From the IMG/VR virus record IMGVR_UViG_3300027974_000020, positions 96,001 through 160,000 of that record: a stretch of 64,000 bases of DNA; one strand, given 5' to 3'. Source of the DNA: a virus. Under the pieces are notes generated by a model. That model worked only from the letters and a program-made list of their open reading frames with translations. It was not told where the DNA came from and made no database searches. Each line of letters starts with the position of its first letter. Position 1 is the stretch's first letter. This document shows positions 4,440 through 63,834 of the stretch, piece by piece. Made by a program: the position numbers and the translations under genes.

Positions 4440-5852
4440 CTACTTTGCTAGTTTAGTTTTCTTAGATGGTTTAATTAAATTAAAACTAAATTTATCTTCA
4501 TTGTAATCGATATTGAAAATAGTACCTTTAGGTATAGTATTTTGAACTATTATCCTAGATAGTTCAGTCTCTATTTGATCTCTTCGTATTTGTGATAAAC
4601 CTCTTGCGCCCTTTACTGAATCAATACCCTTATCAATCAAAGCATTGATTACATTGCTATTGTATTCTGCTGAAAAACCTTTTTTAATTAATTTATTTAA
4701 AACTACTCTCATTTCTAGTTCTGCTATTTTTTCACAATCTTGTCTTGACAAATGATTAAAAACTATTATTTTATCTAATCTATTAATCATTTCTGGTTTA
4801 AAGTATTTTCTTATTGCATCCATTGTATGTTTTTCTACAATATGTTTGGGTGGTAATGCGGTTGTAGAATTAAGATAATGAACATTTTTATTAAAACCAG
4901 TTCCACTTCCAATTAAATGATCCACAGTTTTATCGTTTCCTAAATTTGTTGTAAGAATAATAATTGTTCCTCTAAAGTCAACCTTATTTCCTTTTGCGTC
5001 TGTTACAACGCCTTCGTCAAATATCGTCAAAAATGTATTCCAAATATCAGGGTGAGCTTTTTCTACCTCATCAATAAGAACTACCGAATTTGGATTCTTC
5101 TGAATCTGGTTAACTAATTGCCCACCTTCATCATGGCCTACATATCCTGGCGGAGAACCAATCAGCTTAGCACCTTCGTGCTTTTGTTGATACTCGCCAC
5201 AATCAATTCTTACCATTGGCGTATCTGAACTGAATAAAAAATCATGCAGTGTTTTTGCAAGATGTGTTTTACCCACTCCAGATGAACCAGATAATAAGAA
5301 TACACCCAATGGCCTATTGACATCATTCATATCAGCCTGAGATCTCAATAGTGCTTGACACACTGCTTGTATAGCTTCATCTTGGCCAATAATATTATTT
5401 TTTAAATAATGTTCTAAAGAAATAAACTTTTGTTTTGAAACTTTCTTTATTTGTTTTTGTTTATTACCTTTACCTAAAGGTTTTTGTCCATATCTTGATA
5501 TTATATTTTTTATTTCATCAAAATTTTTATCAAGCTCAACTTCTGGCTCTAATGGCGACGATGCATATGCGATTGCAATCCAATAATCTATATCTAGACC
5601 TGGATTAAGCATTACACATCCGGTATATAATGCTTCTATACATCTTTCGGCATTAGACCTAGTCATCATTCCTAGTGCGGCTGAGATATCTGTCTTTAAA
5701 TTAAAAATAACATGTTGAAGAATTTTTCTTCTTCTATCTTTTTCTGTTTTTACTGTTATCTGAGAAACGAATTCATCAATTTCTTCCGGTTCCAAGACTT
5801 TGTATTTTACATATACATTTAAATCTGGAACGTATATTTGATATATCTTCAT
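4440..5852 (-). CDS. ClpA/ClpB-type AAA+ ATPase (second nucleotide-binding domain only) with unique N-terminus
   Basis: IIGQDEA, GSSGVGKT (Walker A), LIGSPPGYVGHDEGGQL, VLIDEVEKAHPD (Walker B), FKPEMINRLD, GARGL; start moved to ATG 5852 behind GGGAG. Confidence 0.9.
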   Translation of the reverse strand: MKIYQIYVPDLNVYVKYKVLEPEEIDEFVSQITVKTEKDRRRKILQHVIFNLKTDISAALGMMTRSNAERCIEALYTGCVMLNPGLDIDYWIAIAYASSPLEPEVELDKNFDEIKNIISRYGQKPLGKGNKQKQIKKVSKQKFISLEHYLKNNIIGQDEAIQAVCQALLRSQADMNDVNRPLGVFLLSGSSGVGKTHLAKTLHDFLFSSDTPMVRIDCGEYQQKHEGAKLIGSPPGYVGHDEGGQLVNQIQKNPNSVVLIDEVEKAHPDIWNTFLTIFDEGVVTDAKGNKVDFRGTIIILTTNLGNDKTVDHLIGSGTGFNKNVHYLNSTTALPPKHIVEKHTMDAIRKYFKPEMINRLDKIIVFNHLSRQDCEKIAELEMRVVLNKLIKKGFSAEYNSNVINALIDKGIDSVKGARGLSQIRRDQIETELSRIIVQNTIPKGTIFNIDYNEDKFSFNLIKPSKKTKLAK

Positions 5853-11266: not shown

Positions 11267-11557
11267 ATTCTTATCTTCCCTTCGCCTTATTAGGCATTGT
11301 TGTTATGGATGTTTATTCTTCTTATTATATAACAGCTCAATCATAATACACATTTGTATAGATCAAAACAACTCCTGATCAAACTTTTTTTCTGCGGGCC
11401 AATTCTTATTCTCAACCTGTATAAACATATATAAAATTCCTATAAGCCTAAAAAATAGGTAAAAAATATAAGGGGGTAATAGTGAGTATATGTTGTGCTT
11501 CATAAGTTTTAACGAGGCCACCCCTGTATACCCCATCGCTCCTCTGTTTACAAGAGC

Positions 11558-11644
11558 TAACCGTTGACAATGAGGTTATAAAACACAATGTAAGTCTGAC
11601 ACTACATAGGCGAAGGTGATATGGATGCACCTACCAATACATCC
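11558..11644 (+). ncRNA. Predicted tandem pseudoknot leader (3 units)
   Basis: Stems TAACC/GGTTA, ATGTA/TACAT, AGGTG/CACCT; each loop complementary to a 3' segment (e.g. GGATG/CATCC). Confidence 0.5.
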
Positions 11645-11670
11645 CACTACATGTTCCTTAAGGAGGAGAC

Positions 11671-11964
11671 ATGTTTACATCAATCATTGAGTGGTTAGTA
11701 TTCCTTACAGTAGTAGGCAGTATCGCAGCATCTGTAGGCCTGATGGTCTATGGTGTGTATGTGGTCGTGTCAGATATAAGTACTGTTAATGCAGTGCTGG
11801 TCTTGACAGGGCTATTTGGTACAGTGTTCTCACTGCTTGCGCCATTTATATTCAATGGTGTTATCCCAGCTAATAACTGGGGATTAATGGTTGGTTTTAG
11901 CTGCTGGTTGGTAGCTCTTCCTGCCTTTATAATACTGGGTGCTTGGGCTATAGAGCGCAAGTAA
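11671..11964 (+). CDS. Membrane protein (3 TM)
   Basis: AAGGAGG RBS; hydrophobic. Confidence 0.75.
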   Translation: MFTSIIEWLVFLTVVGSIAASVGLMVYGVYVVVSDISTVNAVLVLTGLFGTVFSLLAPFIFNGVIPANNWGLMVGFSCWLVALPAFIILGAWAIERK

Positions 11965-12047
11965 TCAGTTAATCAACTAAGAAGGCTCTTCCATGGTAGT
12001 GCATGGGAGAGCTTTCTTTTTTATGGCTAGGTATAAGACATCTAGCT

Positions 12048-12148
12048 ATGTCTCATCAGATCGACATTAACTGTCTGTGACCCCAGCGTAGGTAGTGGCT
12101 GGACAACACACTGCTATGGAGACACGCGTGCCATATATAACAGCGTGT
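12048..12148 (+). ncRNA. Predicted tandem triple pseudoknot leader
   Basis: ATGTC/GACAT with CAGA/TCTG; CCAGC/GCTGG with GTAGTG/CACTGC; TATGG/CCATA with ACACGC/GCGTGT. Confidence 0.65.
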
Positions 12149-12164
12149 AATAAGGAGGTAGCTT

Positions 12165-12449
12165 ATCGCTGCTATAACACAAGGTAAGACAGTTACATTC
12201 AAGCAAGTTGATGATATCATCAATTCTGCCGCTAAGGAATACCGGGTTTACCACTACAATGGTGGACAGGTCTTCATCCGTTTAAGCGCGTTGGATAATA
12301 TGATGATGGTTATCGACCATTCAACAGTAGACATTACAGTTGAGTTGTTTGACGGAACTGCATACTTGGCTGCATATGCCAATAACAACACTGAATACAG
12401 CAACCGTTTTATTGCTGCGCCATCACAATTGGCTGTGTTGTTTGCTTAA
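12165..12449 (+). CDS. Hypothetical protein (94 aa) with probable non-canonical ATC start
   Basis: TAAGGAGGT SD 5 nt before ATC; 95-codon open frame fills the unit up to the terminator. Confidence 0.65.
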   Translation: MAAITQGKTVTFKQVDDIINSAAKEYRVYHYNGGQVFIRLSALDNMMMVIDHSTVDITVELFDGTAYLAAYANNNTEYSNRFIAAPSQLAVLFA

Positions 12450-12553
12450 GTAAGTAATAAAGAAAGATACCCTGGGGTCTTCGGACCCTGGGGTTCTTTT
12501 TTTATGACTAGGACAAAGGTCTTATGTCAATACTCTCTAGGAGGGGAGTAGAT

Positions 12554-12823
12554 ATGAATATGAAAGACAAACTAATAATGGCAATAATTGCAGTATTATC
12601 AGTGCTTGCAATTGTTAGCTTTGTAGATGCAAGTAACAACCCAGTATCCTGCCAAGTTGACAGTTTGGTAGCGACATATGGAGATACCTATTGGACATTG
12701 AGCAGTGATGCTGGTTGTGTTGGTGGGTATGATAAGCAAAGTAGGGTTGGGCAGATAATTGATCTTAATGGAGGTTCTGCGGATCTCCGTCATGGTCAAT
12801 TGGTAATATTCCCAACTAAGTAA
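12554..12823 (+). CDS. Membrane-anchored LysM-like domain protein
   Basis: N-terminal TM; GDTYWTL...IIDLNG...LRHGQLVIFP. Confidence 0.7.
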   Translation: MNMKDKLIMAIIAVLSVLAIVSFVDASNNPVSCQVDSLVATYGDTYWTLSSDAGCVGGYDKQSRVGQIIDLNGGSADLRHGQLVIFPTK

Positions 12824-12915
12824 ATTAAGTAAGTAAACCCAAAAAGAATTCCCCGAGCTGGTACCCTCTGCCAGCTTGGGGTTTTCTTTTTATGACTAGA
12901 GCTCAGGCTTTAGTC

Positions 12916-12975
12916 GGGCTATAAGCGTTACGCCCTGAAAGTAATGCACCGGTCGTTGGCTACCGTAAAGCTAAC
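12916..12975 (+). ncRNA. Predicted tandem double pseudoknot leader
   Basis: GGGC/GCCC with GCGTTAC/GTAATGC; CGGT/ACCG with GTTGGCT/AGCTAAC. Confidence 0.6.
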
Positions 12976-13027
12976 ACCTGTTGCGCAATTTGGGACTTTC
13001 TCTCCCAAAAAAACAGGAGGAATACTA

Positions 13028-13351
13028 ATGATTACAATGATCATTATCGCAACACTCATGGTTGTGGCTGCAGTTGCAGTTACAGTCTGCGTGATGCAGC
13101 AAAAGGCAATCGTTCTGATCAATCAGATCAAGAACCTCATCGTTCAATTGAGCGAAGAGAAAGCAAAAGCAGCCAAGGTTCTTTCCGAAAAGGAACAAGA
13201 ACTGAGGGAAGCCAAGGATACAGCACGCCGTCATTTAAATGATTGGAATGCTCTCTACTTGGAGAAAAGGGCAGCTGAAGCCAAAAAGGCAGAAGCAGCA
13301 AAGAAGACAGAAGCGAAAGCTACTGTAAAGAAGACCAAAACAACCAAATAA
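13028..13351 (+). CDS. TM plus coiled-coil protein with Lys/Ala-rich tail
   Basis: AGGAGG RBS before ATG 13028. Confidence 0.75.
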   Translation: MITMIIIATLMVVAAVAVTVCVMQQKAIVLINQIKNLIVQLSEEKAKAAKVLSEKEQELREAKDTARRHLNDWNALYLEKRAAEAKKAEAAKKTEAKATVKKTKTTK

Positions 13352-13476
13352 GACAAATTAGGGAAAGTCCTAATTGCGCAACAACAAAAGATGCCCTGGG
13401 GGTTAACACCCCTGGGGTTTTCTTTTTATACCTAGAACATAGGTCCTTATAATAAGTGAAGGGAGGTGAAATAGAA

Positions 13477-13650
13477 ATGGAAAACGCTAGGAATGGCATA
13501 TTCCCACATAAGTGTGGATGGCCATCCTGTGAGTTTGTAGTGGAATTGGACGATGAGCCCAATTGCTTTACTCATTCACCAGACAGCGGCAGTTCCGAGG
13601 TCGGCTACTCTGCAAGGAGAGATGCTGAACGCGGAATCGTACGGTTCTGA
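13477..13650 (+). CDS. Small Cys/His zinc-binding protein
   Basis: GGAGGTG RBS; CGWPSC...CFTH. Confidence 0.6.
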   Translation: MENARNGIFPHKCGWPSCEFVVELDDEPNCFTHSPDSGSSEVGYSARRDAERGIVRF

Positions 13651-13785
13651 TGGGATGGCAGCCAACTGACTAAGAGTCGGGGCAGATGAATAGTGCCTGG
13701 CAACAGAAACTATCATGAAAGAATAATCTCAGGGGTTAGCATCCCTGAGATTTTCTTTTTATGACTAGGGAAAAGGTCTCTAGTC

Positions 13786-13836
13786 TGGTTAGCAGACCAT
13801 AATCTGTTTAGCCGTAGCTGTACATACGGTGCCAGC
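13786..13836 (+). ncRNA. Predicted tandem double pseudoknot leader
   Basis: TGGT/ACCA with AGCAG/CTGTT; GCCGTA/TACGGT with GCTG/CAGC. Confidence 0.5.
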
Positions 13837-13879
13837 GTGATGGGCGCATCCCATCTTTATGATTTCTTAAGGAGGAATC

Positions 13880-14170
13880 ATGTTCGGCATCATATTGCTA
13901 CAAAACTGGTTGACTTTTGCGATATTCGCAATTTTGATATCAGTCTCGGTAATGATCATTATCGAGGAAACAAAAGGTAAAGGTATCATTAACACTATCC
14001 TATACACTTTAGGATTTGTGTCACTGTTGTCTTTATGGCCTGTATTTAATATCTATACAGCCATACCTATCACAAACGATAATAATTTATTATTTATAAT
14101 AGCTTTATTTACAACATATTTTGCTCTGGTATTTGCTGGAACAGAGTTGATGGATAAAGCTACAAAATAA
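13880..14170 (+). CDS. Membrane protein (3 TM)
   Basis: AAGGAGG RBS; hydrophobic. Confidence 0.75.
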   Translation: MFGIILLQNWLTFAIFAILISVSVMIIIEETKGKGIINTILYTLGFVSLLSLWPVFNIYTAIPITNDNNLLFIIALFTTYFALVFAGTELMDKATK

Positions 14171-14336
14171 TAAAAAACTAGAATACTTTAGTTGTACAGA
14201 GCTAAAGTTTTCTTACCAAACTAAGAAGTCCTTGGGGTTAGCATCCCAGGGATTTCTTTTTTATGCCTAGTGGATAGGTCACTAGGTAGGCAATCTTATT
14301 ATGCCTACAAATAATAAGAGGAAGGGGAGCCTCATC

Positions 14337-14522
14337 GTGTCTGACACCTTGAAGCGCTTTCCTACCCTGACCTTACAATGCGCAGACACAATCTGCTTCA
14401 TTTGTAAGACAGAAACCAAAGTCAATGGGGATACCAACCCCTATGACCTTGGTTTTGCCAGGGTAGGTGGCAACTCCGCCAACGGGTACGAGATCTATCA
14501 CATCTCGTGCTGCAACGGCTGA
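14337..14522 (+). CDS. Small Cys-rich protein
   Basis: AAGGGGAG RBS before GTG; CFIC...HISCC. Confidence 0.6.
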   Translation: MSDTLKRFPTLTLQCADTICFICKTETKVNGDTNPYDLGFARVGGNSANGYEIYHISCCNG

Positions 14523-14680
14523 GTTAGCCTAATACTGGCCACCTGTGCCTGTCTCATAACTGGGGGACATTAAACTACTCAGTGAGAGGGTAGCCCAAAG
14601 CATTAGCTAGGGCTACCCTCTTTTTATATGACTAGGAGAAAGGCTTCTGGTTAAACCAAACATACAACAAAGGAGAAACC

Positions 14681-14950
14681 ATGCGTACATCACCACGCTG
14701 TGTTGGTATAGTAAAACCAACAAGTAGGCGAGTGTTAAAGAAGGGGTTGGAGAGGTATCCTCAGATAAAGGGGGATGTAACTCAACAACGGTGCTTAAAA
14801 AGTATCAACTGCCCACACCACAGGGTTGCTAATGCTAGAATTATGGAGCTTCCATTAGAAGAACCATATGTAGAGCTAACAAGAGAGCAAATAAGGCAAT
14901 TGATTAACATCGGTTACATGGCTGAAACAGGCCGTCCATACTACTTATAG
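14681..14950 (+). CDS. Hypothetical protein (C..C..CPHH zinc motif)
   Basis: AAGGAG RBS. Confidence 0.7.
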   Translation: MRTSPRCVGIVKPTSRRVLKKGLERYPQIKGDVTQQRCLKSINCPHHRVANARIMELPLEEPYVELTREQIRQLINIGYMAETGRPYYL

Positions 14951-14974
14951 ACCATAGGTCAAAGGAGAATAACA

Positions 14975-16102
14975 ATGAAATCATTAAAGCGTTTATTAAT
15001 AATCTCTACTGTTGCAATTTCTTTTATTGGGGTCAATGAAAGTTCTGCTTCAGCTAGAAATAACAAATGTGTAAAAGTTGGCACATTTAAAACGGCAGTA
15101 AAAGTTAAGTACGAATGCAAGAGATTGACCACAGGTCTCAGATGGGTAAAGGTACAAACAAAAGTTGTACCAACAACACCTGCTGAAGTTATAATACCAA
15201 TACCAACTGATTGGTCAAATATTGAAAAGTATGCACAAAACATACCATACGCAGCATGGAAGGCAAGTGTTGGCGCGATCACCACTGGTATGCCTCAGAT
15301 GCCAACAGTGAATATCATTAATGGACCAAATGCCCTTATAGCTTATTCAACTCCGGAAGTTAAGATTAATTTAACATCACGTTTATTTTCATCTGCAAAG
15401 CAACTTTCGCAGGTAAATATTATGCGTTTTGGGTATGATGATATTGGATGGGCTAATTCAAAGTGGTTAGAGCAATTTAATGGCCAAGATAATTCTGTTC
15501 CAAGAGAAATATTCGATACGTGTAAAACTACCACGACATGTTGGGGTGGCATTTCGCGCAATACCAAAAGTGGAATAGCTTGGTTTGCTTTGGCAACAAT
15601 GAAAGATAATCTATCTGAACCTAAACTTGTAAACGGGACTAACTACGCGCACTCATATGCTCATGCAATCCAATACGCAGCACTGTCTGAAATACCAGCA
15701 CAAAGACTGCCAAGATGGTTGCTTGAAGGAGTTGCTACTTATTCACAAGCTGCTGTTGAAGGCATGGTAAGTTTTGATTTATACAAGTCTGAACGCACAA
15801 GAGAAACAGGAGGATTAAATAACTCTCTTGAATGGCTTGAATCATTTCTTGCCCCAACAGGCAATGATTGGTCTCATTGGAACAAATATACTGGTAATGA
15901 TTCTTGGAGAGTTTATGATGTTGGTTTTATGGCAACCGAAGCGTTAGTAGCCCTCAGAGGACCAAACACTGTAATGAGTTTGTATACAAAAGTAGGAAGT
16001 GGTCAAACTTTTGATCAAGCGTTTAATGAGCTATATGGAATCTCTTGGGCTGAAGCTCACAAGATAATTGCTCGTGTAATTTCCTTACAAATTAACAAAT
16101 AA
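14975..16102 (+). CDS. Secreted protein with degenerate gluzincin-like motif
   Basis: Signal peptide; HSYAH (HExxH with E replaced by S) followed by PRWLLEGVA. Confidence 0.65.
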   Translation: MKSLKRLLIISTVAISFIGVNESSASARNNKCVKVGTFKTAVKVKYECKRLTTGLRWVKVQTKVVPTTPAEVIIPIPTDWSNIEKYAQNIPYAAWKASVGAITTGMPQMPTVNIINGPNALIAYSTPEVKINLTSRLFSSAKQLSQVNIMRFGYDDIGWANSKWLEQFNGQDNSVPREIFDTCKTTTTCWGGISRNTKSGIAWFALATMKDNLSEPKLVNGTNYAHSYAHAIQYAALSEIPAQRLPRWLLEGVATYSQAAVEGMVSFDLYKSERTRETGGLNNSLEWLESFLAPTGNDWSHWNKYTGNDSWRVYDVGFMATEALVALRGPNTVMSLYTKVGSGQTFDQAFNELYGISWAEAHKIIARVISLQINK

Positions 16103-16190
16103 TCTTATTAAAGAATAGAGGGTCCTTCGGGGCCCTTTTTTCTTTATGACTAGTGGATAGGCCACTAGTCTTTAGTTAAGGAGAAGAGTA

Positions 16191-16517
16191 ATGAAAGAAA
16201 TGGAATGGTGTGGATGCATGGATGTGCGTTCATGGAAAGATGGCTTTGCTGATATTTTTAGCAGAGAGTTAGTAGAAGGTAAAAGAAAAGGTGAGTTGTA
16301 TGAATTGTTTGAAGTTAAAAGCTTTGAAGAATTTAAGGATGAGTTAAGTGATATTGCATGGGGTGTAGGACGTATTGTTGGTGGTTTGGTTGGTAAGCCA
16401 TATGTACGGATTATTGGTGATGCAATACATTACAATAAGGTTGTTTCTCGTATGAATGAATATGGTTGTATGAGGAGCAAGCGATTTCTTATTAAGGGTG
16501 AATGTCCTAATAAGTGA
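16191..16517 (+). CDS. Hypothetical protein
   Basis: AAGGAG RBS; fills one repeat-delimited unit. Confidence 0.75.
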   Translation: MKEMEWCGCMDVRSWKDGFADIFSRELVEGKRKGELYELFEVKSFEEFKDELSDIAWGVGRIVGGLVGKPYVRIIGDAIHYNKVVSRMNEYGCMRSKRFLIKGECPNK

Positions 16518-16633
16518 TTTAAGTTAATTAGTAAATAATTGACGGGGTATGCCCCTAGGGTCGTTTGATCCTAGGGGTATATTTTTTATGCCTAGTGGAA
16601 TGGCCGCAGGTTATAGATTATAGGAGAAGAGAA

Positions 16634-17065
16634 ATGAAAGAGAAAGCAATTATAGTTGATATTGATGGTACTTTGTTTGAAGAGGTGCCAGGTTGGACAA
16701 TGGAGACTGATGCATGGTGGGTGGAAGAAACACTTAAGATGCGTGAGTTGAAAGTTGGAATTGGATTAATTAAAGTATTTAAGGAAATGGGATTTAAGTT
16801 GGTTTTCTTGACAGCAAGAGGACAAAGCTGCAAGAAGAATACTTTGATTAAGTTTAAGGAAGCTGGTATTGATAACTTGGTAGATTCGATGTGGCACAGG
16901 CCAGTTAAGTGGAATGGCGTGGCACCAGTTGAATATAAGAAGTTCATGATGCAACGGATTATGAAAAAGTATGATGTTGTGTTTGCTATGGATGATAGCG
17001 ACAAGAACTTGGAAATGTTTAAGGGATTGGGTATCAAGGTATTTGATGCAAAGAGGTGGTGGTGA
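16634..17065 (+). CDS. HAD-superfamily phosphatase (polynucleotide-kinase phosphatase type)
   Basis: DIDGTL, LTAR, K, MDD motifs; AGGAG RBS before ATG 16634. Confidence 0.85.
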   Translation: MKEKAIIVDIDGTLFEEVPGWTMETDAWWVEETLKMRELKVGIGLIKVFKEMGFKLVFLTARGQSCKKNTLIKFKEAGIDNLVDSMWHRPVKWNGVAPVEYKKFMMQRIMKKYDVVFAMDDSDKNLEMFKGLGIKVFDAKRWW

Positions 17066-17148
17066 GGTTATTGATAAACCTCAGACCAAAGAAACTAGGG
17101 TCCTTCGAGGCCCTTTTTTCTTTATGACTAGGACACAAGTCTTAAGTC

Positions 17149-17213
17149 TGTCTATTGGTAGACATAAACTTCATGACCCCACTATTGGTAGTAGGTGGCA
17201 AATCATACTACCA
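17149..17213 (+). ncRNA. Predicted tandem pseudoknot leader
   Basis: TGTCTA/TAGACA-TAAAC-TTCATGA; CCAC/GTGG with TGGTAGTA/TACTACCA. Confidence 0.6.
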
Positions 17214-17251
17214 GGGCACAGCCTTCACTGTGACTAATAAAGGAGAATAAA

Positions 17252-17932
17252 TTGGAAATGAACGAAGAGCCCAAAGCAATGCCAAAGTGGTTGGGTAAAT
17301 TCCCAGCCTACATCAAACAATTGTGGTTGGATTCAAACAAAATTGAACCCACACCACCAGTGGAACCATCACTGCCAGCAGAAGGCGAATTTCGTTTTCT
17401 GTTGATTCCACAAAATGACACAAGCAACTCCGAGGCGGTACCGATGTTGGTGCTCATCCAGAAAGTACTTCAAGATGGGTACTTCCAGGTAATGCTTACT
17501 CATTGTGAAGATGCAATGCAAACATACTCTGATCTTTACGTCACTAGTGGCGAAACAGGTTTGGGGTATGGTGTTTTCATTAGCACCGCAATACAAAATC
17601 AAGCTAACGTGAATTGCTTGAGCGAAACTGCAGTTGGTAAGTTGATTCCTTCAATGGTACGAGCTAGGGGTACATACAATTTTGGACCTAATGATGAGTG
17701 GCGCAGAGGACGTCGCTTTTCTTCAGATCGATTTGTTGCACAACTAGATCCACGTTGGAAGTTCGTTAATGAACAACTTACTGCAATGCAATACCTACTG
17801 GGCGCATATGAAGATGAAGGCGATACTCGTGACTCTGAATTGAGCGCAAAACACCAAGCAGAAGACATGAAATCGTTTTACCAAGTTGACCGTGACAATG
17901 GTGAACTTCTTCCATCGCAGAAAAACAACTAA
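17252..17932 (+). CDS. Hypothetical protein
   Basis: AAGGAG RBS; 226 aa. Confidence 0.75.
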   Translation: MEMNEEPKAMPKWLGKFPAYIKQLWLDSNKIEPTPPVEPSLPAEGEFRFLLIPQNDTSNSEAVPMLVLIQKVLQDGYFQVMLTHCEDAMQTYSDLYVTSGETGLGYGVFISTAIQNQANVNCLSETAVGKLIPSMVRARGTYNFGPNDEWRRGRRFSSDRFVAQLDPRWKFVNEQLTAMQYLLGAYEDEGDTRDSELSAKHQAEDMKSFYQVDRDNGELLPSQKNN

Positions 17933-17941
17933 GTAAGTAAT

Positions 17942-18012
17942 AGGTCTGATTGGATCGACCTTAACTGTCCATGAACCAACCGTTAACCAAGAGGTTGTAA
18001 TTCACATGGTTA
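17942..18012 (+). ncRNA. Predicted tandem double pseudoknot leader
   Basis: AGGTC/GACCT with TGGA/TCCA; CAACC/GGTTG with TAACCA/TGGTTA. Confidence 0.65.
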
Positions 18013-18040
18013 TTTAATCACAAACAAAAGGAGAAGGATA

Positions 18041-18559
18041 ATGTCAGATAACAAAAACAAATTCCAGTCAAGGCTGGATGCAATCTCAAAGGTTGCAATT
18101 GTTTTACATGCCTTTGGCACATGGTATGAACTACAAATTGAATCCAGTGACAAAAATCGGTTGACTGATGGGGCACTGAAGTATACACAGCATGTTAGCT
18201 TGTTCCCAAGCAGCAGAACATTGTATTCTTTTGTTGGTGTTTCAGAAGATGGTGCAATTGTCAATGGTTTCATGCATGATGGAACAAGCAACGACAATGG
18301 TGGTTATGGCAGTGATTCGTTTGAATTGACGATGAAAGATGGATCACACAAAGTCATAACAGGACCATGGAGCTCAAGACCAGGAGTTCATACTGTTAAC
18401 AGCGGTATTCAATACACTGAAGTTAGAGTTGGTTATGGTATGTATGGATTCTCAAGGGAATTCATTGAAGCCATAATTGATCGATTTAACCTCGATGTAA
18501 ATCTTGACTCAGTAACTTTGGAAGACAAAGAAATTAATCTGAAAGTAACACCTAAGTAA
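18041..18559 (+). CDS. Hypothetical phage protein
   Basis: RBS; GGYG...GPWSS motif. Confidence 0.75.
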   Translation: MSDNKNKFQSRLDAISKVAIVLHAFGTWYELQIESSDKNRLTDGALKYTQHVSLFPSSRTLYSFVGVSEDGAIVNGFMHDGTSNDNGGYGSDSFELTMKDGSHKVITGPWSSRPGVHTVNSGIQYTEVRVGYGMYGFSREFIEAIIDRFNLDVNLDSVTLEDKEINLKVTPK

Positions 18560-18655
18560 GTAGCAGCGGTGAGCCTGGAGTTAGGTTTCAGGCTAAGGAA
18601 ATTAGGGTCCTTCGGGGCCCTTTTTTCTTTATGACTAGGAATAAGGTTCCAAGTC

Positions 18656-18725
18656 CGTCTGATTGGATCGACGTAAAATGTCCATGACCCCTGGTTATTG
18701 GTTACCCAGGACAACTACGTAACCA
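18656..18725 (+). ncRNA. Predicted tandem double pseudoknot leader
   Basis: CGTC/GACG with TGGA/TCCA; CCTGG/CCAGG with TGGTTAC/GTAACCA. Confidence 0.65.
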
Positions 18726-18773
18726 GAGAGACACTATCTCTCTATAATAAAAAGTGTAATAAGGAGGAATGTT

Positions 18774-19163
18774 ATCAAAGAGCAAATCAACAAAATCAAC
18801 CAGGTCACTGATGGTGACAAGGTCAAGTGCGAGCCGTGCTTTGGCACAGGTAAGTACATGAGCAAAACCGTCATCGATGGAACATGTTTCCGTTGCAAAG
18901 GCACTGGTTCAGAAAAAGCAATGTCAATCAAGCAATACAATTTCATCAAGGAATTGTTCATGGCATTGGTGAAAATGAACATCATTGTGAAAGAGAACAA
19001 TGAATGGCATGAAATGGTTAACACCATGAACCAACACAAGGATGGAATTACATTGCGGTCATCCAAGTGGGCATCAGACAAGATTGAGGAATACAAGGCT
19101 CGCAAGAACCGTGTCCTCAAACCTAAGAGGCCAGTGTATTCAGTTACCCACTGTGGAATTTGA
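18774..19163 (+). CDS. DnaJ-type zinc-finger protein, probable ATC start
   Basis: Frame extends upstream of ATG 18858 to include CEPCFGTG, partner of CFRCKGTG; AAGGAGG 6 nt before ATC 18774. Confidence 0.7.
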   Translation: MKEQINKINQVTDGDKVKCEPCFGTGKYMSKTVIDGTCFRCKGTGSEKAMSIKQYNFIKELFMALVKMNIIVKENNEWHEMVNTMNQHKDGITLRSSKWASDKIEEYKARKNRVLKPKRPVYSVTHCGI

Positions 19164-19354
19164 GCAGTGGGATGAACCACAGTGGGTAACTGAAGAATGG
19201 AAAGCTGGAGAAGATGCAGAGGCTGACATATACTAGCACCGCCAGGTGTATAGGTAGTCATCAAGTCAAAGAAGAGGGGGTCCTTCGGGGCCCTCTTTTC
19301 TTTTATGCCTAGGACACAGGTCTCAGGCTAACACTCTCTAGGAGGGGAGTAATC

Positions 19355-20806
19355 ATGAAGAATAAACCAACAACAAACAAGGAGGAAACGGTGTATAAAG
19401 ACACTGTCTACGCAAAACTGAGAAGGGCACTTTACAATGTCATTCTCGAAGGTAAATTCATGCAAGAAACTCAATGGGACGAGAATGGACGATGCCACAT
19501 GGTTCAGACATTTGGTGACCGTGGAATTATTGCAACAATGCAACGAAAAGCAAATAACAAAGGATGGGTTGTATTCTTTACTTTGTGCATGTACAAGCAC
19601 GAGCAAAATCACATTCCATTCATGCGTGATTTGAAAGTTAGATTGACTATCAATGAAACTCCATCTGGAGTAAGATTATTGTGGTTTGTTAATGGTAAGC
19701 CACAATGGATGGTAGAAAGTAGTCAAATGGCTTTCTCAAATAAATTCCATCATACTGGACATATAGTTCAAGAAGTTATTAATCAGATCAAGAGTATATA
19801 TTCTCCTGAAGATTTTATACCGATCTTGAAGTACATGCAAAATCCAACATGCAAAGAGTATACTTTGTATGGCCTTAACCAAAGGTGGATGAAAAAGTTA
19901 TCAGGTGGAACAAACCCTAGGCAAATCTTGAATAAAATCTATGGCAAAGATGGGCAGGATGGGTTGAGCAGAAATGCTTTTGGTTCAAATATTGGCAAAA
20001 AGAGTTTTGCTACATTTGCTATAGCAGCTGAGCTAGTGCGATATTTGAAATCATTTCCTACATCATTCTTTGATAAAATCATTCTTGATGACTTTGCAGT
20101 ACAAGATATTGCATACTTGGGGATGATGTATCAAGATGTAACTTACATCCAATATTTCATTAAGTACTTTAATCACAGTAAAATCCAACAAGATTTTATT
20201 AATGCGATTAATAACTTTGAAATGTATCCACATTCTGATTATGACATTTCAGATGCTACAGAACGTTTCTTTAGGATGAGCATTTGGCAGGAAGCACGTG
20301 ATACCGGCAGGATGTTCAAGGAAATAAAGAACAGAGCTGTTCGGAGAAACATCATTGCACTTAAAGGCACGGTTCAAGAAACCCATGACCTTGTCACTAT
20401 CGAGAATGCAAAGCTAGCTCGAGAAGATAAGCAAATCAAATACAGTGATAAGAGCCTTATCCTGGATGGTCAACAGATAACAGATAATATTATTTCTGTT
20501 CTTCCGAAGACAACGTTTGATTTAATATTATGGGGTTCACAACAGCACAACTGCATAGGTAGCTATGGAGATCGTGTTGCTCGTGGCACAGGTGCGATTG
20601 TTGTTGGATTCAAAGATGTGACAACAGATACTTGGGTCGGCCATGCTGAACTCAATAACTATTTCAACAGCTTTGGAAGTTCTTGGACAATCATGCAGTT
20701 GAGGGGCAAATATAACTCAAACCTTGATGAGTCAGATGAAACTACTATTCGTTTGTTTCTGGACAACATACTCAATGCTTGGAATGAAGAGTTAGTATTG
20801 CCATAA
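19355..20806 (+). CDS. PcfJ-like domain protein
   Basis: C-terminal LILWGSQQHNCIGSY...MQLRGKYN; start may be GTG 19391. Confidence 0.75.
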   Translation: MKNKPTTNKEETVYKDTVYAKLRRALYNVILEGKFMQETQWDENGRCHMVQTFGDRGIIATMQRKANNKGWVVFFTLCMYKHEQNHIPFMRDLKVRLTINETPSGVRLLWFVNGKPQWMVESSQMAFSNKFHHTGHIVQEVINQIKSIYSPEDFIPILKYMQNPTCKEYTLYGLNQRWMKKLSGGTNPRQILNKIYGKDGQDGLSRNAFGSNIGKKSFATFAIAAELVRYLKSFPTSFFDKIILDDFAVQDIAYLGMMYQDVTYIQYFIKYFNHSKIQQDFINAINNFEMYPHSDYDISDATERFFRMSIWQEARDTGRMFKEIKNRAVRRNIIALKGTVQETHDLVTIENAKLAREDKQIKYSDKSLILDGQQITDNIISVLPKTTFDLILWGSQQHNCIGSYGDRVARGTGAIVVGFKDVTTDTWVGHAELNNYFNSFGSSWTIMQLRGKYNSNLDESDETTIRLFLDNILNAWNEELVLP

Positions 20807-20936
20807 AGTTTTACCTCAGGTAAATAAGAGAGAAGGGTCCTTCGGGACTCTTTTCTTTTATGCCTAGTTCACAGGTCTCAGATCACTGAGGTCGCTAGGC
20901 AAGTAATACAAACCAATAAACCCTTAAGGAGGGAAT

Positions 20937-28162: not shown

Positions 28163-28426
28163 ATGAGCACACCAACTGAAGTAGTCGAAATCCAACGTTG
28201 GATGAAAGACGCAGCATGTAAGGGGAACACTGAAGGTGACTGGTTCCCAGAAGCCCCAGGCAATAACTCTGGAGTAAAAATAGCTTTAGCAATATGTAAA
28301 GATTGTCTAGTCAAACAAGAATGCTTTGACTATGCAATAACAAGACCAGAACTATCAGGTATCTGGGGTGGAGTAACATCACGCAAGCGTGGATCCTTAC
28401 GAGCCGAAAGGAAAAAAGGTGAGTGA
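28163..28426 (+). CDS. whiB: WhiB-family Fe-S transcription factor
   Basis: WMKDAAC...WFP...ICKDCLVKQEC...GIWGG. Confidence 0.93.
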   Translation: MSTPTEVVEIQRWMKDAACKGNTEGDWFPEAPGNNSGVKIALAICKDCLVKQECFDYAITRPELSGIWGGVTSRKRGSLRAERKKGE

Positions 28427-39087: not shown

Positions 39088-39417
39088 ATGCGGCATATCC
39101 CCAAAATCAAAAATGTATTATATAATGTTTCTTGGATGAATAAAGCCGCTTGCAAAGGTCTTACTCATATATTCTTTGGCAAATATGCAGAAAGACCACA
39201 ATCTACTGTAAGGAGAGAAGCCAGAGCTAAATCTATTTGTAGCCAGTGTTCTGTCTTTGATCAGTGCCGTCAATATGCTAGAGATAATATGGAACTTGGT
39301 TACTGGGCCGGCGAAAACGAATATGATAGATATTTAATTTCTCCTTCTGAAAAAGTTCCAAGCATACATGCTAGAGCTTTAAAAACTTATTCTAATAAAT
39401 TAAATAAAAACAATTAA
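39088..39417 (+). CDS. whiB: WhiB-family Fe-S transcription factor
   Basis: WMNKAAC...FF...AKSICSQCSVFDQC...GYWAG. Confidence 0.92.
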   Translation: MRHIPKIKNVLYNVSWMNKAACKGLTHIFFGKYAERPQSTVRREARAKSICSQCSVFDQCRQYARDNMELGYWAGENEYDRYLISPSEKVPSIHARALKTYSNKLNKNN

Positions 39418-46064: not shown

Positions 46065-46379
46065 ATGTTAAATCAAAATCCTAATGAACAAGATTTTACT
46101 TGGCACAATAAAGCTGCATGTAAAGACCTCCCTGCAGATGTATTTTTTCCACTTAACTATAATGCCTCTTCTTTAGAACAAGCAAAACAAATATGTTCTA
46201 GTTGTCCTGTCAAGGTTGAATGTTTTCAAGATGCAATTAGCAACAACGTTTACGGTATATGGGCCGGCACTACAGAATACCAAAGAAGAAATATTGTAAA
46301 TAATTATTACAATGGTGAATATAAAGTAATTACTTTAAAAGAAGCTAAGTATATTTTAAATTCAATAATAAAATCTTAA
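46065..46379 (+). CDS. whiB: WhiB-family Fe-S transcription factor
   Basis: WHNKAAC...FFP...AKQICSSCPVKVEC...GIWAG. Confidence 0.93.
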   Translation: MLNQNPNEQDFTWHNKAACKDLPADVFFPLNYNASSLEQAKQICSSCPVKVECFQDAISNNVYGIWAGTTEYQRRNIVNNYYNGEYKVITLKEAKYILNSIIKS

Positions 46380-63456: not shown

Positions 63457-63834
63457 ATGAACGAAACTTTAGTTTGCACAGTGTGTGACAAGAAATGGCA
63501 AAGATTACGTGCCCGTGGCAGAAAACCAATTGTTTGCCCTGCATGCGTTGTCCAAGAAGCTTCTGACAATAAAGAACTTCTTACTACCCCTAAAGTTGAA
63601 ACTCATAATAATGATTTAACTTCTGATGTAAAAAGCATTCTTTGTAACGTATATAGTGCTTATTATCCGAAAGATATTAATGTTTACAAAATAACAGAAT
63701 CTAAACCCAAGGTAAAATGGGTTTGTGTTCATTGTAATTTTGAAATGGTTAGTGTTATACCATTAACTGCTGTGCCTTTGCACAAGTGTTCCAAAAACAC
63801 CTCTTCTCTTACTGAACTATCCTTAGCTAAGTAA
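63457..63834 (+). CDS. Zinc-finger protein
   Basis: CTVC..RGRKP..CPAC; CVHC..HKC. Confidence 0.7.
   Translation: MNETLVCTVCDKKWQRLRARGRKPIVCPACVVQEASDNKELLTTPKVETHNNDLTSDVKSILCNVYSAYYPKDINVYKITESKPKVKWVCVHCNFEMVSVIPLTAVPLHKCSKNTSSLTELSLAK

Follow-up and report, generated by a model that had tools for sequence, protein, structure and literature searches.

Tandem H-type pseudoknots in the early cassette array of a lake phage, candidate roadblocks to 5'-to-3' RNA decay

The window analysed here is a stretch of 64,000 nucleotides (nt), bases 96001-160000 of the 169-kb IMG/VR virus record IMGVR_UViG_3300027974_000020, which belongs to a large lake phage, and the elements under study are small tandem H-type pseudoknots in the leaders and intercistronic spacers of its early genes. 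The early array comprises 13 cassettes within window 12022-20859. In each, one or two small open reading frames (ORFs) and a strong Shine-Dalgarno site are accompanied by a leader, an intrinsic terminator and a conserved motif that contains a covarying hairpin. Every gene and every element discussed is carried on the plus strand. The small proteins of the cassettes have no family assignment, except for a weak DnaJ-type zinc finger and a HAD phosphatase. Terminator-like sites are abundant in the array (24, versus 6.8 in shuffled sequences), and a sigma-70 promoter scan of the array found sites no commoner than expected by chance. The window also contains six tRNA genes and three WhiB-family genes scoring over the Pfam cut-off (28199-28396, 39133-39330 and 46101-46292). 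The three WhiB genes make an actinobacterial host probable, and both RNase J and RNase E are present in actinobacteria.

A preliminary description of this DNA had pointed to at least nine intergenic segments in which short stems carry loops complementary to a segment just downstream, and all of the stems and loop/tail pairings that it quoted were found in the sequence at the positions given. In the 946 nt of leaders and spacers in the window, 12 non-overlapping H-type pseudoknots (at least 10 base pairs (bp), at most one wobble pair) were detected, compared with 0.77 ± 0.89 in 300 dinucleotide shuffles, none of which reached 12. The preliminary description had named similar numbers in shuffled leaders as grounds for giving up its reading; with 12 knots against a mean of 0.77, those grounds are therefore absent. 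Nested minimum-energy folding rated the leaders no better than shuffles (z of +0.8 to -1.9), and these z-scores are uninformative and were given no weight either way, because the nested model cannot represent pseudoknots. The observation of tandem pseudoknots in the leaders is confirmed, and the structural reading, in which homologous copies covary, is borne out by covariance-model matches and by covariation in relatives.

Relatives were first collected by exact-pattern scans, which gave 11 loci in viral contigs and 50 further loci in metagenomes. A covariance model (R1, alignment A2) built from eight gap-free copies of one copy class then gave 95 matches, comprising 67 distinct sequences from the window, ten viral relatives and the metagenome loci. 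Over the 169-kb record of the phage, the model matched only at 11538, 12048, 17942 and 18655, and a copy at 17148 was matched in a smaller search; these five matched copies all lie within the early cassette array. Each copy is a pair of H-type pseudoknots, pseudoknot 1 (PK1) and pseudoknot 2 (PK2), to which some copies add a third (PK3) adjoining the Shine-Dalgarno site.

Compensatory changes are present in all four helices of the pair. In the CAACC class, 92.9% of cells are paired and five pairs show double changes, a level reached by 0 of 500 shuffles, and sliding the partner lowers the pairing to 25-36%. Among 18 PK1 sequences, 93.8% of cells are paired and four pairs have changed on both sides, a level that again none of 500 shuffles attained. 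When every copy was parsed structurally, 13 stem-1 and 29 stem-2 5' strands of PK2 were distinguished, each complementary to its own partner. In 39 distinct compact copies, the loop/tail helix of PK2 reaches at least 6 bp with its own tail in 90% of cases, versus 7% with tails from other classes and 8% with shuffled tails. Stem 2 of PK1 occurs as UGGAU/GUCCA and as CAGAU/GUCUG, its conserved U.G pair has become U-A in relative L030:3547, and in L031:11968 every loop and stem-2 base of PK1 is replaced with a 6-7 bp knot kept. The recurring G.U pairs correspond to A.C mismatches on the opposite strand, which identifies the sense, plus-strand RNA as the predicted folded molecule.

PK1 spans about 29 nt and is composed of a 4-5 bp stem 1 around GUC/GAC, a 10-nt loop, four bridging bases and a 5-bp stem 2; its 3' part has one base after stem 2 and a 5-6 nt linker (mostly UUAAAU or UUAACU), and a U-R-A junction comes next. 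The loop and linker bases are strongly conserved across copies. After a gap of 4-6 nt, PK2 follows with a 5-bp stem 1, 1-4 bridging bases, a stem 2 of 5-9 bp, 0-3 bases and a 7-9 nt A/C-rich linker, which is larger in some relatives through a small extra hairpin. The loop lengths of both are those of classical H-type knots. Types c and d of PK1, found in copy B of the window and in relatives, have shorter loops and a stem 2 of only ~3 bp. In several classes PK2 looks like a diverged duplicate of PK1, with bridging bases and the start of stem 2 in common. The long leaders measure 100-140 nt and are nearly all paired, and in leaders A and D a third knot ends 3-5 nt 5' of the Shine-Dalgarno site. 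A natural variant at L059:2416 has kept PK1 and lost PK2, and is joined to the downstream leader that follows PK2 in L063.

Copy A of the window starts with a type b PK1 at 12048..12077 (5-bp stem 1, stem 2 CAGAU/GUCUG), followed by PK2 at 12083..12114 and PK3 at 12115..12148 (5+6 bp each), with the Shine-Dalgarno site 3 nt on at 12152 and the gene starting with ATC at 12165. In copy B, a type c PK1 with an 8-nt loop and a stem 2 of only ~3 bp (17149..17173), a type present in eight distinct relatives, precedes PK2 (17179..17214, 5+9 bp) and a hairpin (17217-17243) with a loop capable of pairing to the Shine-Dalgarno site. Copy C is intercistronic: its PK1 (17942..17971, 5+5 bp, 98.6 bits with R1) starts 9 nt past the stop codon of gene 17252-17932, and its PK2 (17977..18012, 5+6 bp) is separated from the Shine-Dalgarno site of gene 18041 by ~15 nt. 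Copy D lies immediately 3' of the promoter-associated hairpin and consists of PK1 (18656..18684, 4+5 bp), PK2 (18690..18726, 5+8 bp), for which relative L030:6151 shows a compensatory change from G-C to A-U, and PK3 (18725..18756, 7 bp plus 4 to 5 bp), which ends 5 nt before the Shine-Dalgarno site of a gene starting with ATC at 18774.

Of the nine sites first listed, 12048, 17942 and 18656 stand in full, 17149 stands as to PK2, and 11558 proves to be a PK2 homologue. This PK2-type unit (11558..11591), in the leader of gene 11671, is covered by an R1 match at 11538-11593 (E-value (E) 7e-5) and is preceded at ~11539-11558 by a 4-bp hairpin with a compensatory change in relative L028; its loop/tail pairing has decayed here to 3 contiguous bp and is a perfect 7-bp helix in L028:6645. 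The same leader holds an extra predicted H-type pseudoknot (11614..11644, 5+5 bp), a newly listed one whose sequence is kept in the L028 and L045 leaders. Gene 13028 has a leader in which three pseudoknots in succession (12916-12947, 12955-12985 and 12989-13022, together 12916..13022) form a plausible site that is partly homologous to the family, since its 3' half is held in common with PK1-PK2 leaders of relatives such as L045:1872, with too few variants for covariation; in the last of the three, the Shine-Dalgarno purines serve as the stem-2 3' strand. Another pseudoknot new to the list (14286..14319, 7+8 bp), in the leader of a gene starting near 14339, is conserved in L031. At 14550..14583, a 3' untranslated region carries a single isolated knot of PK1-like form, with a terminator hairpin 2 nt 3' of the knot, and no relatives of this knot were found. 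Two of the listed sites stay unproven. The possible 4+5 bp pseudoknot at 13680..13713, in a 3' untranslated region, has a sole, near-identical relative, and the site at 13786, where the leader of gene 13880 begins, is ambiguous between a hairpin and a small pseudoknot (13783..13808), with both variable positions in eight distinct relatives fitting a plain 5-bp hairpin and a pseudoknot equally. In L028 (~4860-5000, minus strand), L038, L045, L053, L058 and L074, a leader beginning like window 13783 continues for ~130 nt of GC-rich, conserved sequence before the gene, and this stretch, which has no match in Rfam, may be another structured RNA. A candidate at 63550 was dropped because it lies inside an ORF.

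Of 67 distinct copies, about half have their start no more than 10 nt past the stop codon of an upstream gene, and neither a terminator nor a promoter motif intervenes. Approximately 15 start within 3 nt of the promoter-associated hairpin, and approximately 10 follow the 12-bp palindrome that heads the first leader. The 3' ends of the copies lie 3-20 nt ahead of the Shine-Dalgarno site. In near-identical form, the CAACC module stands before many unrelated ORFs with ordinary AUG starts; the ORFs behind the module have 47-220 codons and no family assignment. Orthologues of gene 17252 carry a pseudoknot leader here and in several relatives and a short hairpin leader in L028, and the module is therefore exchangeable. 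Judged by its positions, the pseudoknot module is an alternative cassette junction to the terminator-plus-promoter unit. The PK1 position is also occupied by sequence-unrelated knots, as at 12916.

Several neighbouring features deserve mention in their own right. Short leaders, at 12528-12553 and 19330-19354 in the window and in relatives L028, L030 and L031, represent another type of leader module, an alternative to the first, in which a covarying hairpin either exposes an AGGAGG Shine-Dalgarno site or partly buries it. At the gene ends 17930-17941, 12447-12458 and 12821-12836, stop codons in two or three frames are packed inside ~12 nt. The conserved motif found after every terminator has 13 copies in window 12022-20880 (for example 16145-16170 and 17123-17148), and its core is a covarying hairpin of the form CUAG-N3 / loop / N3-CUAG with G.U pairs on the plus strand only; it is therefore probably a transcribed 5' stem-loop rather than a DNA hairpin. 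Gene 16634-17065, among the early genes, encodes a HAD phosphatase of the polynucleotide kinase-phosphatase type (Pfam E 3e-12), which may have an RNA-end repair function. In genes 12165-12449 and 18774-19163, the first ATG, GTG or TTG occurs only at codons 43 and 30, respectively, and is preceded by conserved protein sequence including a CxxCxGxG zinc finger. In both genes an ATC lies 6 nt 3' of AGGAGG, the orthologous codon in relatives being TTG, ATC or ATT, and these look like non-canonical AUC/AUU starts.

The closest known counterpart of PK1 is found in eukaryotic RNA viruses. Coremin consists of a GUC-YGAD-GAC hairpin, a G, the spacer UUAAACUAC and a second hairpin of free sequence, and it stalls Xrn1 (PMC6546385). 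In its 10-nt spacer, G-UUAAACUAC, the central bases A16-A20 are essential (PMC6546385). It is also known as xrRNA-C, for exoribonuclease-resistant RNA (xrRNA), and its carriers are beny-, cucumo- and other eukaryotic RNA viruses (Dilweg et al. 2019, PMC6546385; Dilweg et al. 2023, PMC10520033 and PMC10321173), with tandem copies occurring in plant viruses (PMC6546385, PMC10321173). Loops of up to eight bases are functional, and scanning ribosomes are blocked in eukaryotic systems (PMC10520033). In a Watson-Crick variant (xrRNA-WCC) the loop pairs with the spacer end, and the motif stimulates frameshifting (PMC10321173).

PK1 shares with coremin a 3-5 bp GUC/GAC first hairpin followed by a G/N-UUAAA linker, the pattern GUC...GAC and then N-U-W-A-A-M being present in 63 of the 67 distinct copies, as well as a variable second hairpin downstream, tandem copies and an untranslated or intergenic placement. 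As in the Watson-Crick variant, the PK1 loop pairs antiparallel with the bases after the linker (5 bp, with compensatory changes). When the spacers are compared, the first 6-7 positions of PK1 (N-U-W-A-A-M) agree and the last three form the stem-2 3' strand, again as in that variant; the 14550 copy is the only one with the full spacer, its linker being the exact 9-nt coremin spacer. Unlike in coremin, the second hairpin here is itself a pseudoknot, and the carrier is a DNA phage whose probable host lacks Xrn1.

A second, more widespread knot is connected with PK1. Two pattern scans of viral contigs returned mostly chance matches, except for one class with an 8-nt loop and a UUAAAC linker, in which loop/tail pairing of at least 4 bp is present in 30 of 37 distinct matches with visible covariation; other loop lengths were near chance. 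This knot is 28 nt long and uncatalogued, and it is found after stop codons in many unrelated viral contigs. It resembles PK1 in its CGUC/GACG stem, its UUAAAC linker, its covarying loop/tail pairing and its site just past stop codons, but has one bridging base and a 6-bp stem 2, whereas PK1 has four bridging bases and 5 bp, and it usually has no hairpin following. In L029:8246, L066:669, L077:3384 and L063:1289 (30 nt upstream), the 8-nt-loop knot lies immediately 5' of PK1, and the two types are therefore directly linked. These four relatives have three knots in a row, and the stem orientation of the 8-nt-loop knot is sometimes flipped (GAC...GUC).

No match to Rfam 15, including preQ1, SAM-II, guanidine-III, pistol and flaviviral xrRNA, was found at the gathering threshold for the window elements and seven relatives, and nothing matched a 96-nt slice at E up to 10, in keeping with the earlier remark that no named RNA family was recognised. 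BLAST against 50,697 phage records found no cultured relative for the 8.5-kb region or for the 71-nt module, and, going by the sequences found, the PK1+PK2 module is confined to one lake-phage clade. No report of phage tandem pseudoknots or phage xrRNAs was found in the searched literature. Neither Rfam nor the searched literature contains a tandem PK1-PK2(-PK3) module; unnamed models in the structured-RNA catalogue drawn from IMG/VR (PMC10690425) lay outside this comparison. Both small H-type knots in the untranslated RNA of viruses and knots of the coremin-like kind were known before.

Other systems offer partial parallels. The gene 32 mRNA of T4-type phages, an example mentioned in PMC10690425, has a translational operator pseudoknot in the leader of one autoregulated gene. 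Like the knots described here, it is an H-type knot at the 5' end of a phage mRNA leader, ahead of an unstructured run and a ribosome-binding site, but it is a single knot serving one gene, whereas the module here recurs in front of many genes of unrelated kinds and also in intercistronic positions. Knots that follow one another in viral untranslated RNA, each folding independently, are also known from the tandem xrRNAs of flaviviruses and from the upstream domain of the tobamovirus 3' untranslated region, which has three pseudoknots; those have other folds (a ring-like three-way junction and a tRNA-like context, respectively), belong to eukaryotic RNA viruses and have no sequence in common with the present family. 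The promoter-early stem-loop (PeSL) cassettes of T4-type phages, reportedly described by Arbiol et al. in 2010, are likewise repeated regulatory modules around small early genes that are exchanged between genomes, but combine a promoter with a simple stem-loop and have no pseudoknots.

The most likely function of the module is, in our estimate, that of a cis-acting roadblock shielding the downstream cistron from 5'-to-3' decay, to which we give a probability of roughly 40%. The long leaders and intercistronic spacers of the early array would be transcribed as strings of small sense-strand H-type knots, with PK2 supplying the hairpin that coremin requires downstream. Such strings would act in cis as protein-free mechanical roadblocks, halting enzymes into which RNA is threaded 5' side first, foremost RNase J and also 5'-end-dependent RNase E, and each downstream cistron would retain a protected 5' edge and a free ribosome-binding site, behind a promoter or mid-operon alike. 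A protein-free device is favoured over an operator or a riboswitch because the fold survives wholesale sequence replacement and unrelated knots substitute at the same position, because 5' ends and intercistronic sites alike carry the module, and because of its likeness to an RNA known only for stopping 5'-to-3' machines. The decay roadblock is ranked first because it fits such a device, because the probable host group has RNase J, and because a folded flaviviral xrRNA blocks bacterial RNase J1 in vitro (PMC5760640). The exonuclease block, already suggested in the preliminary description, gains indirect support from the stem and linker likeness to coremin and from a probable actinobacterial host with RNase J. 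With the fold, strand, conservation, placement, modular exchange and sequence likeness to coremin established, the block to nucleases is what we infer. That the knots are true exoribonuclease-resistant RNAs of a DNA phage, coremin relatives or convergent twins that in tandem stop RNase J, and perhaps also ribosomes, at cistron borders, is a possibility that we hold to be rather unlikely.

Several points weigh against the roadblock. PK1 types c and d have a stem 2 of only ~3 bp. Promoter-proximal leaders already start with a hairpin, so that a simple 5' block would seem not to need two or three further knots. The knot at 12989-13022, which sequesters the Shine-Dalgarno site, and the weak starts behind three-knot leaders hint at translational control. 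As for coremin, its loop has 4-8 nt with at most 3 bp, whereas the PK1 loop has 8-10 nt with a 5-bp stem 2. The YGAD / YGNNAD loop rule of coremin does not hold, the loop beginning with UGAU or CGAU in 31 of 63 copies and with CAAU, UAUU, CAUU or UCAU in the others. The second hairpin (the 5-bp stem 1 of PK2, always present) lies 4-6 nt away instead of being adjacent. The likeness could be convergence among small knots with A-rich linkers. Because the loop rule does not hold and the second hairpin stands at a distance, PK1 is classed by its sequence as coremin-like and not as a member of coremin, that is, as a lineage-specific variant of the coremin-like pseudoknot.

The strongest rival, though in itself unlikely, is translational control, in which the knots would be protein-bound operators repressing or timing an early regulon, or protein-free enhancers or insulators of the adjacent ribosome-binding site. 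It would account for the last knot always lying 3-20 nt from the Shine-Dalgarno site, whose purines can pair with the knot at 12989-13022 and the hairpin at 17217-17243, and it has a precedent in the leader pseudoknot of T4 gene 32; however, the genes downstream are many and unrelated, with none recognisable as encoding an RNA-binding protein, and the copy at 14550 has no gene behind it. Three-knot leaders accompany weak starts, the orthologous first-cassette gene beginning with TTG, ATC or ATT and window genes 12165 and 18774 with ATC. The conserved loop and linker bases of PK1 are what would be expected of a binding site, but one lineage swaps all PK1 loop bases with the fold kept, sequence-unrelated knots substitute at the same position, and coremin shows that tertiary folding alone can give such conservation (PMC6546385).

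Less probable still is a barrier to other 5'-to-3' translocases, by which post-termination ribosomes would be kept from the next cistron or Rho would be denied a loading or tracking path. The position of about half of the copies within 10 nt past a stop codon, shared by the 8-nt-loop family in other viruses, fits a barrier to ribosomes, as does the ability of coremin to stimulate frameshifting (PMC10321173) and to block scanning ribosomes in eukaryotic systems (PMC10520033), yet a copy lying just behind a promoter would meet no ribosome coming from upstream. The leaders are long (100-140 nt) and nearly all paired, but their C/A-rich linkers are few and none is tied to Rho.

Improbable, too, is a role as signals for the YonO-like RNA polymerases of the phage, for example as put-like antitermination RNAs for passage through the cassette terminators. 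The array is rich in terminators (24 sites versus 6.8 in shuffles) and several copies come directly after the promoter-associated motif, but many copies are intercistronic with no terminator nearby, each cassette has a promoter-like motif of its own, and the 8-nt-loop family occurs in many unrelated viruses. The related proposal that the elements are recognised by polymerases resembling RNA-dependent RNA polymerases is unlikely as a promoter function, because about half of the copies lie between cistrons directly after a stop codon and far from a promoter motif.

A small-molecule riboswitch of the classical H-type (preQ1-I or SAM-II style), which would share the size, topology, A-rich third loop and conserved loop bases of PK1, is very improbable given the absence of an Rfam match even at E up to 10, the small orphan proteins rather than metabolic genes downstream, and numerous, modular copies whose pocket-forming bases are replaceable. 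Equally improbable is that the elements are junction repeats without RNA function, kept alike by cassette recombination with incidental pairings: near-identical modules do recur within single genomes and could be maintained by gene conversion, but recombination yields neither compensatory double changes in 29 stem-2 variants nor strand-specific wobbles.

Some more specific roles were considered and rejected. An upstream ORF at the PK1/PK2 junction (AUGA) is contradicted by AUA in six distinct copies, with no Shine-Dalgarno site preceding. A frameshift or readthrough stimulator is at odds with the stop codons, found in two or three frames, that separate PK1 from the upstream ORF, and no slippery site lies at a suitable distance. 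A ToxI-like type III antitoxin, which has tandem repeats of ~34-36 nt, was set aside as Tandem Repeats Finder found no array at any element and PK1 and PK2 differ. A CsrA-type GGA loop site was discarded because PK1 types b, c and d lack GGA.

The knots provide a clean, strongly covarying family for Rfam and explain the 100-140 nt leaders on some early genes of this phage clade. They also aid annotation, as two genes behind them appear to start at ATC, and as parts of 30-70 nt they may serve as portable elements to stabilise or insulate messages in actinobacteria. The analysis also connects this clade-specific module with a phage pseudoknot of much wider distribution, for which the searched databases have no entry. 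If RNase J or RNase E is blocked, these knots would be the first structure-based nuclease shields to be described in phage mRNAs, and the coremin solution would be common to, or reinvented by, very different viruses. If the knots are true exoribonuclease-resistant RNAs, structure-based nuclease evasion would extend from eukaryotic RNA viruses to the phages of actinobacteria.

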